Counted from the stretch's first letter, positions 19,249 through 22,882 are shown. The stretch: DNA of 64,000 bases from an uncultured Opitutales bacterium (GCA_964577805.1 CAZOAG010000002.1:7139-71138); one strand, 5' to 3'. A program made the numbers and translations. The notes: generated by a model from the sequence alone, not told the origin.

Positions 19249-19417
19249 TATATATAACAACGGTAAAGTATATTGCATAGAAAACAATACATCTGCAATA
19301 TGCCACTTGTCTGTTAACCCCATCTGCAATATTTGCGTGTAAGACATACTTTTAATATAAAAAAACATTCACATTGCATTCTTTCATGTCATTATTTTTG
19401 TCACTTTTCTTACTACT

Positions 19418-20320
19418 ATGTTCAAATTTTTCAAAAATACAGGCAAGCGACTAAAACAAGCAACTACCAATTTGTTTCATATATTGCTTCCGTCGAAAAT
19501 CGATGCCAAATCATTACAATCATTGGAAGACACATTATTTTCTGCAGATATTGGTGTAGATGTTACAAAAGATATAGTATCACAAGTAAAAGATGAATTA
19601 TCCAATAAAAAATCCATGTCCCGCGAGGACATTTCATCGTTAGCAGCTGATGTTATTCGAAAAAATTTATCTGGATCTGAAGGTAAATTATCGCTATCAA
19701 ACGACGGTCTTACAGTAATTTGTCTCATCGGGACCAATGGGTCTGGAAAGACAACAACCGCAGCGAAACTGGCATATCACTATAAAAATTTAGGATATAA
19801 AGTGTTACTTGGGTCATGCGATACCTTCCGTGCAGCTGCAAATGAACAGCTCGTACATTGGGCACAAACATTATCGATCGACATTGTTGAGAGCCGCCAT
19901 GGTGGAGATTCTGCTGCAGTAGCATTTGATGCTTACCAATCTGCCATTGCTAGAAAAAAAAATCTTCTGATCTTAGACACCGCCGGTAGGTTGCATACCA
20001 AGACCAATTTGATTGGAGAGCTGGAAAAAATTTTACGTGTTCTACGCAAAAAAAACCAAGATTTACCGCTTCATGTTTGGCTCGTTGCTGACAGTACCAT
20101 TGGGAGCAATACAATCAAAGTCTCTCAATCGTTCAATGACAACATTCCATTGACTGGGCTGATAATGACAAAACTAGATGGTACAAGCACTGGAGGAACA
20201 TTGATAGGTACATATAGTTCAGTTCATGTTCCTATCTTCTTTATTGGTACAGGAGAACAATGTACAGATTTACATACATTTTCTATTGAACAATATTTGT
20301 CCAAACTATTACCATATTGA
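19418..20320 (+). CDS. ftsY: signal recognition particle receptor FtsY (short, NG domain only)
   Basis: GTNGSGKTTTAAKLA (G1), DTAGRL (G3) and TKLDGTSTGG (G4). 300 aa. Confidence 0.9.
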   Translation: MFKFFKNTGKRLKQATTNLFHILLPSKIDAKSLQSLEDTLFSADIGVDVTKDIVSQVKDELSNKKSMSREDISSLAADVIRKNLSGSEGKLSLSNDGLTVICLIGTNGSGKTTTAAKLAYHYKNLGYKVLLGSCDTFRAAANEQLVHWAQTLSIDIVESRHGGDSAAVAFDAYQSAIARKKNLLILDTAGRLHTKTNLIGELEKILRVLRKKNQDLPLHVWLVADSTIGSNTIKVSQSFNDNIPLTGLIMTKLDGTSTGGTLIGTYSSVHVPIFFIGTGEQCTDLHTFSIEQYLSKLLPY

Positions 20321-20428
20321 TACACAGTTTATCGAGAAAAATTACTTATATTTCTGAAGAAACACAATTGTGCGGTTAGCGTTTACGTTGGTTATTAGTG
20401 TTGTTTTAATAACACTATTATGCAGATG

Positions 20429-20742
20429 TTATCGACACAGTTATTGATCATATATAGTCAATTTATTTTTATTTCTGATCAAAATATGCCATTTTGTTAC
20501 TAGAAAAATTAGGAAGTACACTAGTTGAACGTTTCATAGCTACCGATTTTTAAATTGGCATTCACAAATGCTATTATTATTCACTGCCAATGTGAATAAC
20601 TCCGTTAATAACTTGTTAGCATTTTGTTAATTTCTATTTTTATTAACAACCATTCACATGCCAATAATCTCTTTATTCACAAGGAAACCATTCGCATTAG
20701 CCAGTATTTTTGGTCCTAAATTGAGTTATTAACTTATTCACA
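20429..20742. promoter_or_regulatory. cluster of DnaA-box-like 9-mers (candidate oriC or DnaA-regulated region)
   Basis: Three perfect TTATTCACA: 20591-20599 (reverse), 20673-20681 and 20734-20742. Near matches at 20429-20437, 20558-20566, 20577-20585 and 20650-20658. Flanked by very AT-rich runs. Confidence 0.5.
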
Positions 20743-20970
20743 ATGCATATTACTACTACTGAAAATATTAATATACATATAGCAGTATTTGATATCACCA
20801 GCATTACAGAAAATATGGTACAAATTTCTATCGTATCTGACGTCAAAAATCTCAAACAAATGCTTAAGTAAAAATATCAACATAAACACGCACCACGCAT
20901 TTTATTGTCAATTAACAATTTTTGTTGTTTAATAGCTTGCAGCTATCAAATAATACCAGTGTATATCAAT

Positions 20971-21953: not shown

Positions 21954-22817
21954 ATGCAGCGCCATCGTATGGTAGAATGTATAGGCAAAAATGACGGGCG
22001 CGATGGTGGTTTGCAACAATCAAGTCAGATTGGTGTAAACACAAAATCGACATTGAACAATCCGACTGAACGGATAGATGGTGGCAACTTAAATGAACGA
22101 ACTTCTGAGCAAGCGCGCCCAGCAAATGGACAGAATACTGGTATTTTTGATTGCTTAAAAATATTAAAGGACAAAAGTGTGCAGGTTGTAAAACCAGCAG
22201 TTGATATTTATAAACAATACCCATTTACTACTTCTATGGTTGTATTTGGTGCAGTTTCTGTTGTAATGCCAGCTACTGGATTGCCAATGATGGTAAAAGC
22301 TGCAGTTGACATTGCCAAGGATAAGTTGTTATCTGCAGAAGTTAGTGAAAGTGAGGCGCAAAATTTTGTTGGTCAGCTTGCAGTTAGTGCGCAACAACAT
22401 CCAATGGTTACAAAAGCAATTTCAACCGCTATTACTACTGGCATTCAAACTGGTGTGTTAAACATTTTGGGCGTGACAAAAGAACAAATGATCGGAAACG
22501 CATGGAATAATGGTTTCAATGCGACATTAGATATGCTCACAAATAATATTGATGCGACTAAAAATTTAGCATATCAACATTCAGTAATTGCACAATGTAT
22601 TACAACAGCACTATCAATAGCCTCTAACATAGCAGTAGGAAAGTATACACAAAGCATGCCTGCTGTACTGGCGGAGTCTGCGTTATCATTAGGCATAGGA
22701 TTTTTCTCTTCACAGTTTGGTACAAGTATTTTTAGTGAAGTGAAAAAGTTGATTGGTTATGGACAACCTGTTCTACAACAAGAACAAGCAATTGTTGATC
22801 ATAAAAATGTTGAGTAG
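21954..22817 (+). CDS. hypothetical protein: hydrophilic N-terminus plus Ala/Val/Thr/Ile-rich hydrophobic helices
   Basis: 287-aa ORF directly after tRNA-Leu. The N-terminal ~70 aa look polar and disordered. Hydrophobic segments follow (TTSMVVFGAVSVVMPATGLPMMV, MPAVLAESALSLGIGFF). Confidence 0.55.
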   Translation: MQRHRMVECIGKNDGRDGGLQQSSQIGVNTKSTLNNPTERIDGGNLNERTSEQARPANGQNTGIFDCLKILKDKSVQVVKPAVDIYKQYPFTTSMVVFGAVSVVMPATGLPMMVKAAVDIAKDKLLSAEVSESEAQNFVGQLAVSAQQHPMVTKAISTAITTGIQTGVLNILGVTKEQMIGNAWNNGFNATLDMLTNNIDATKNLAYQHSVIAQCITTALSIASNIAVGKYTQSMPAVLAESALSLGIGFFSSQFGTSIFSEVKKLIGYGQPVLQQEQAIVDHKNVE

Positions 22818-22882
22818 GTGAGAAGTTAATAATAAGTAATGGAATTTACTTTTCGCTTTGCATGCATACTATCCAATGATTT

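Follow-up and report, generated by a model that had tools for sequence, protein, structure and literature searches.

A probable replication origin away from dnaA, in the ftsY–birA gap of an uncultured Opitutales bacterium

The ftsY–birA locus and its DnaA boxes

The window, by which we mean the whole 64-kb stretch of DNA that was analysed (all positions are counted from its first letter), is chromosomal DNA with a base composition of 36.5% G+C, and the nearest relatives of its FtsY come from uncultured Opitutales/Puniceicoccales (Verrucomicrobiota). When the genes flanking the ftsY–birA gap are scanned against Pfam and NCBIfam they prove to be chromosomal housekeeping genes (Table 1). An earlier note on this DNA had reported that the genes flip from mostly minus to mostly plus some distance to the left of this gap, and the position of the flip, ~17 kb, is correct. 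No intrinsic-terminator-like hairpin was found after ftsY (window 20321-20420). Three ORFs to the right of the gap, of 287, 598 and 842 aa (window 21954-24679 and 29159-31687), have no Pfam/NCBIfam match, and the 287- and 598-aa ORFs are the least conserved when compared with contig L001 of a closely related species, with fragmentary matches of 65-83% identity and indels.

The window was also said to be without dnaA and dnaN, and our searches agree. A DnaA domain IV query gave no tblastn match anywhere in the window, and DnaA and DnaN are absent among the ~36 of 56 larger ORFs that were scanned against Pfam or NCBIfam. Neither gene was found within 20 kb to the left of the gap (26 kb when contig L094, which extends the window leftward, is included) or within 43 kb to its right. 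An adjacent indicator gene (dnaA or dnaN), which is a usual but non-defining feature of oriC, was not found at this site.

Table 1. Positions of the genes, DnaA boxes and other elements at the ftsY–birA locus
Feature	Position	Strand	Remarks
groEL, groES, dnaK, glgC	11.4-16.9 kb	minus	
MFS sugar-phosphate transporter, truA, ftsY	17.2-20.3 kb	plus	
ftsY–birA gap			650 bp, non-coding
Whole candidate oriC	20318-20795		non-coding and conserved; begins at the ftsY stop codon and ends where the conserved AT-rich segment ends
Variable left half	20318-20588		weak boxes and AT-rich low-stability tract
Weak box TGATACACA	20318		1 mismatch; overlaps the ftsY stop codon
Weak box TTATGCAGA	20418		1 mismatch
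Weak box TTATCGACA	20429		1 mismatch
Weak box GCATTCACA	20558		2 mismatches
Weak box TTATTCACT	20577		1 mismatch
Conserved core, 207 bp	20589-20795		no indels across three lineages
Perfect box TTATTCACA	20591-20599	-	reads TGTGAATAA on the plus strand; invariant in L001 and L097
Two weaker same-orientation boxes	20640-20658	+	TTATTAACA 20640-20648, CCATTCACA 20650-20658
Perfect box TTATTCACA	20673-20681	+	invariant; 82 bp from the 20591 box in the window and L097
Fused pair	20726-20742	+	TTATTAACT (2 mismatches) shares a T with perfect TTATTCACA (20734-20742); invariant in three lineages; perfect box 61 bp from the 20673 box (window, L097)
ATGC spacer (20743-20746), then ATA TTA CTA CTA CTG	20743-20761	+	five DnaA-trio-like triplets
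AT-rich low-stability DNA	20762-20800		directly after the trios; proposed unwinding element
Fast-evolving spacer, core to birA	20796-20970		48% identical to L001, 67% to L097
birA, then tRNA-Leu, then housekeeping genes	from ~20971, to 64 kb	mostly plus	

A motif scan found all three perfect boxes of the earlier note at the coordinates and on the strands it had assigned to them, and its five near-matches (20318, 20429, 20558, 20577 and 20650) are all in place; three further near-matches, TTATGCAGA at 20418, TTATTAACA at 20640 and TTATTAACT at 20726, had been overlooked. The boxes at 20640 and 20650 differ from the perfect box by one and two mismatches, respectively. The same note had expected TTATNCACA to occur once or twice per window, which is too low: dinucleotide-preserving shuffles give 6.7 ± 2.6 occurrences on both strands. 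As five are observed, the box motif is not enriched window-wide. The gap nevertheless holds the densest cluster in the window, with eight boxes of at most one mismatch per 500 bp compared with four at the runner-up place, and in 5000 dinucleotide shuffles of 20318-20800 (483 bp) neither three perfect boxes nor eight boxes with at most one mismatch were ever reached, the shuffle means being 0.09 and 1.5. The number of perfect boxes, three to four, is modest; their clustering in the ftsY–birA gap is significant, beyond chance, and is of the kind by which an oriC is recognized.

Several smaller elements lie among the boxes. TGATCA occurs at 20445 and 20476, flanking the AT-rich tract of the left half, and the 20591-20599 box, taken with GTTAATAAC at 20605-20613, repeats the right-hand fused pair in inverted form. 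A composite of GTTATTAAC and TTATTCACA is present twice in inverted orientation (20591-20613 and 20723-20742), once with a 4-bp insert, as a long-range inverted repeat of which the related lineage L097 does not keep the weak left arm. Gene callers place a 42-aa ORF (MHITTTENINIHIAVFDITS...) at 20743-20871, starting at an ATG right behind the last box; in L097 the counterpart has 45 aa, in L001 it has 26 aa.

Conservation in related lineages

Same-species Logan contigs are 99-100% identical to the window across the ftsY–birA gap. Two further contigs with the order ftsY–gap–birA allow a comparison over larger distances: L001, from a closely related species (GroEL 99.8% and ProRS-like 95% amino-acid identity), and L097, the BirA of which is 80% identical to that of the window. 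In L001, positions 20321-20790 are ~94% identical to the window, compared with 55-90% at the third codon positions of neighbouring genes, and the 180 nt that follow the conserved block are unalignable. In L097, the core (20589-20795) is 90% identical without indels, and the third codon positions of ftsY, birA and a tRNA-synthetase gene are 70-72% identical. The earlier note had proposed conservation of the boxes in relatives as a check, and both lineages carry the three perfect boxes with the same spacing, the distances of 82 and 61 bp being unchanged in L097. The left half (20318-20588) behaves differently in the two comparisons: it is 97% identical to L001 but only 42% identical, and hence unalignable, to L097, the left half of which carries its own perfect TTATGCACA(-) plus TTTTTCACA.

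When the three lineages are aligned, variable columns number 1 of 53 within the boxes and 35 of 154 outside them (Fisher p = 2e-4). The single variable column in the two boxes at 20640-20658 is 20652, which is outside the box core, and substitutions are concentrated in the spacer 20685-20718, the length of which is kept. A distribution of this kind is what one expects where proteins bind at phased sites, and across these three related lineages the boxes are under purifying selection, as would be expected in an oriC.

The core has a sharp boundary at ~20795, and the 175 nt between it and birA (20796-20970) evolve faster than synonymous sites; this spacer presumably holds the birA promoter. At the other end of the gap, ftsY (window 19400-20100) is mostly 67-82% identical to L001, with 55% identity at third codon positions, unlike the neighbouring genes and the origin block, which are 94-97% identical between L001 and the window. 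The window ftsY is nearer to that of the more distant L097 (88%). From these identities, the divergence of ftsY from L001 looks like an allelic replacement by recombination right beside the origin.

Outside these lineages the arrangement changes. In the L088/L098 lineage, ftsY and birA are not neighbours: contigs L088 and L089 end 122 nt past ftsY, and these 122 nt are unrelated to the origin block, and the birA contigs from the same samples (L098 and L099) have a different gene upstream of birA. Among 22 further verrucomicrobial ftsY loci (44-50% FtsY identity) we found no shared neighbour genes and no box cluster beside ftsY. Three box matches after ftsY in a Coraliomargarita-like MAG (L009, 10936-12036) lie inside a 366-aa ORF and are most likely due to chance. 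Given the separation of ftsY and birA in the L088/L098 lineage and the more distant Opitutales without a cluster on the ftsY side, the location of the origin is specific to a narrow clade.

Proposed unwinding module and strand asymmetry

The five triplets that follow the last perfect box read 3'-TAT AAT GAT GAT GAC-5' on the lower strand. They agree with the box–trio sequence of B. subtilis, TTATCCACAAATCCACAGGCC CTA CTA TTA CTT CTA CTA. DnaA-trios (3'-GAT-5', or 5'-CTA-3' on the box strand) are located downstream of fused boxes, after a short GC-rich spacer and beside the unwinding element, and in H. pylori a 3'-GAC-5' triplet is found together with the box consensus TYATTCACN (PMC8235120). 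Published rules for trio searches specify a box, a spacer of up to 16 bp and at least three NAN triplets (PMC8287927). We applied a stricter rule, which requires three [CT]TA triplets in a row no more than 16 nt behind a box that has at most one mismatch, and the 20734 box with its trios is the sole such site in the window on either strand, where 0.08 are expected per 64 kb. The definition of a basal unwinding system (BUS; DnaA boxes with DnaA-trios) asks for a box with at most two mismatches within 16 bp of at least three consecutive central-A triplets, on the bound strand and in the correct orientation; TTATTCACA + ATGC + ATA TTA CTA CTA CTG conforms to this box–trio rule (PMC8287927), with the orientation taken from PMC8235120. 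The trio module is present in both L001 and L097, and the one change in L097, CTA to TTA, keeps the G/A-A-T form.

Nearest-neighbour calculations on 40-mers place 20740-20800 at the 98-99th percentile of the window for low duplex stability, so that it belongs to the least stable 1% without being the single least stable site. The sequence of the AT-rich segment (20762-20800) is conserved in the three lineages up to ~20795. The AT-rich tracts that had been proposed as an unwinding element in the earlier note are borne out in part: the tract at ~20440-20500 is real, with a duplex instability at the 99.5th percentile of the window, but 20740-20800 is better placed, and unwinding is most likely on the right-hand side of the last box. 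As judged by computation, a candidate AT-rich unwinding element adjoins the boxes, as one does in an oriC.

Raw cumulative GC skew has its minimum at ~17 kb, where the genes switch strand. Because skew follows the coding strand, we fitted GC skew at third codon positions (GC3 skew) of 48 genes with gene strand and the side of a movable breakpoint as factors. The best breakpoint is ftsY|birA (RSS 54.5), ahead of the next gap rightward (55.8), truA|ftsY (68.9) and the 17-kb flip (84.0), the first two values setting the resolution at within one gene. When the fit is weighted by gene length, the model without a breakpoint gives 1584, compared with 588 for the model with one. Rightward of the gap, G prevails over C on the plus strand, also in most genes of the minus strand; leftward of it the plus strand is C-rich, and the plus-strand genes there, including the transporter, truA and ftsY, have a skew near zero or negative. 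The left-side pattern extends 6 kb past the window edge on contig L094, and the signal is strong on both arms, which measure at least 26 kb and 43 kb.

As leading strands are as a rule rich in G, the G-rich plus strand to the right, together with the divergence of the genes from the region, gives the switch the polarity of an origin and not of a terminus. Skew had been suggested as a check on the proposed origin, and in the ~70 kb examined the strand-corrected GC3 switch does fall at the ftsY–birA gap; asymmetry thus switches here with origin polarity, as at an oriC, over ~70 kb and not over the whole chromosome. On a sequence basis of this length, the switch might in principle mark where a large inversion ends, and not the global minimum.

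Interpretation as a chromosomal origin

Directly observed here are the clustered boxes, conserved at constant distances, together with the trio module, a duplex of low stability and the switch in skew, and we infer that DnaA binds here, that the strands would open at 20745-20800 and that the site may be the sole origin. We consider it highly probable that the ftsY–birA gap is the chromosomal oriC, and that this is an ordinary DnaA-dependent origin of the box-plus-trio type which happens not to lie beside dnaA. A replication origin away from dnaA was also the proposal of the earlier note, and the skew switch, the conservation and spacing of the boxes and the trio module all support it.

In the mechanism that we propose by analogy with known origins, DnaA would fill the three TTATTCACA boxes of high affinity (20591, 20673 and 20734) and also the weaker boxes of the same orientation at 20640, 20650 and 20726. 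The fused pair (20726-20742) would then serve as a platform from which an ATP-DnaA oligomer could extend onto the lower-strand trios (3'-TAT AAT GAT GAT GAC-5'), the AT-rich DNA at ~20745-20800 would open, the helicase would be loaded there and forks would depart bidirectionally. The extra low-affinity boxes of the species-variable left half (20318-20588) may raise the local DnaA concentration, as distal boxes do in B. subtilis (PMC6669920). Taken together, the site may represent the first well-supported origin architecture in the Opitutales, one that is uncoupled from dnaA, has its essential function in a ~207-bp box-plus-trio core and has had its accessory box half wholly replaced between species; we put this joint reading forward tentatively, as somewhat short of an even chance.

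The site has much in common with BUS origins such as B. subtilis oriC (incC, boxes 6/7 with trios) and H. pylori oriC2 (ts1/ts2 with trios). In these, as here, fused or overlapping boxes adjoin the unwinding element, and a short GC-containing spacer is followed by 5'-CTA-3' triplets on the box strand and then by AT-rich DNA. A single 3'-GAC-5' triplet is shared with H. pylori, and the window box TTATTCACA fits TYATTCACN (PMC8235120). In contrast to these origins, the ftsY–birA site is not adjacent to dnaA/dnaN, and the box nearest to its trios is the perfect one; usually the upstream box is the better match. Its spacer measures 4 bp from the perfect box and 12 bp from the upstream box, and it has only about five candidate triplets, three of the G/A-A-T form. 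The oriCs predicted by Ori-Finder/DoriC likewise show an asymmetry switch, an intergenic box cluster and DnaA-trios; the present site differs from them in having no dnaA nearby as an indicator, and in being called from a metagenomic fragment instead of from a genome-wide disparity minimum. It is well established that E. coli oriC (gidA/mnmG–mioC) is unlinked to dnaA, that its high-affinity boxes are few and accompanied by weaker ones of the same orientation, and that an unwinding element adjoins them; the Opitutales site resembles it in this but has no 13-mer repeats, no dense GATC array (there are two TGATCA, in the variable half) and other flanking genes. An oriC is not always found near dnaA (PMC10225481).

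The organism's own dnaA was not located. DnaA domain IV of L090, a contig from a sister lineage, returned short fragments only when used as the query, the 6-kb leftward extension of the window (L094) contains no dnaA, and two Logan candidates (P0142 and P0161) were rejected as they come from other samples. Since this dnaA was not found, a rival box cluster beside it may exist. In L090 (1-1885) and a second sister-lineage contig, L104 (1-628), with FtsY identities to the window of 57% and 52%, ftsY is directly preceded by the 3' end of dnaA, in the usual place of dnaN, which suggests that the neighbourhood was once dnaA-linked and has since been rearranged. The dnaA–ftsY gap consists of 1.47 kb of AT-rich non-coding DNA in L090 and only 111 bp in L104; both were considered as origins and rejected, as they have no significant box cluster and no trio module. 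An in-frame TAA (108-110) separates domains III and IV in the dnaA of L090.

Clusters of DnaA boxes may also act as titrating or reactivating loci, as do datA and DARS in E. coli, or form part of a DnaA-controlled promoter, in this case of birA or ftsY. The boxes are indeed far from dnaA and upstream of birA, and three perfect boxes are within the range of datA and DARS, which have a comparable number; with datA and DARS1/2 the site also shares its form, a small intergenic box cluster away from dnaA. However, a non-origin role leaves the replication-type skew switch at the boxes without a reason and the conserved box–spacer–trio–AT module unaccounted for. A datA- or DARS-type locus is a cluster away from the skew switch and without origin function, whereas this cluster is at the strand-corrected switch and has a trio and unwinding module, and on these grounds we take it for an origin and not a titration or reactivation site. 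The promoter variant is further opposed by the ~175 nt of fast-evolving DNA between the core and birA and by promoter-like sites in the block that do not exceed chance; no terminator was found in the block either. We therefore regard a non-origin cluster as quite unlikely. It is very unlikely, in our view, that the site is an origin no longer, or only secondarily, in use or that it marks one end of a large inversion, with the boxes as relics or as half of a split origin and initiation mainly elsewhere. The ~70-kb sequence basis leaves room for this, and the position of dnaA directly upstream of ftsY in L090 and L104 shows a rearranged neighbourhood, but a relic would not keep a 90% identical core, its boxes intact and their spacing constant, when synonymous sites are down to 70%, and the strong skew on both arms (≥26 kb and ≥43 kb) also argues against it.

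The block might instead encode a structured ncRNA or the 42-aa ORF (20743-20871), with the boxes being incidental. The core does fold better than shuffles (z about -3), and 42 or 45 codons are open, without indels, in the window and L097. However, one strand gives as strong a fold signal as the other, which is explained by the inverted box pairs (20591-20613 and 20723-20742), and the left-arm changes of L097 at 20603, 20605 and 20606 are without right-arm compensation; the RNA reading was rejected for these two reasons. There is also no Rfam family match, a search of the Rfam 15 covariance models having given only a chance-level match (E = 0.49, 20 bits vs a gathering score of 75). For the ORF, a hand count in the alignment gives ~13 replacement and 3 silent codon differences between the window and L097, a substitution pattern that argues against coding and led us to reject this reading; the ORF moreover has only 26 codons in L001 and no Pfam match. 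Neither an RNA nor a small protein would explain why substitutions avoid the 9-mers, and we consider both extremely improbable. A mobile-element origin was likewise rejected, as no similarity of the block to plasmids or phages was found.

With the ftsY–birA gap read as the chromosomal origin, general understanding of origins is unchanged; the finding is useful for work on Verrucomicrobiota and is not surprising. In the literature searched we found no described origin from this phylum, which is not proof of absence. The conserved 207-bp core lends itself to assays of DnaA binding and strand opening and is a candidate replicon for vectors in this poorly tractable phylum, and the origin could serve to anchor estimates of growth rate made from metagenomic read depth. 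With it, the PVC superphylum would also contribute an example to the case for a box-plus-trio module that is ancestral in bacteria.

A metagenome scan gave no match to an exact 29-mer of the core and four matches to the three-box spacing pattern, all from unrelated organisms with long tandem box arrays. The arrays on these contigs (L100 2419-2584, L103 12-198, L102 1401-1682 and L101 38-560) hold 10-14 perfect TTATTCACA/TTATCCACA boxes and are of the origin type, but much denser than the ftsY–birA cluster. On L101, ~15 boxes are spaced irregularly and dnaA was not detected. In L100 and L103 the boxes are head-to-tail with a period of 11-12 bp, in L102 the period is exactly 21 bp, and dnaA is present on these three of the four array contigs.
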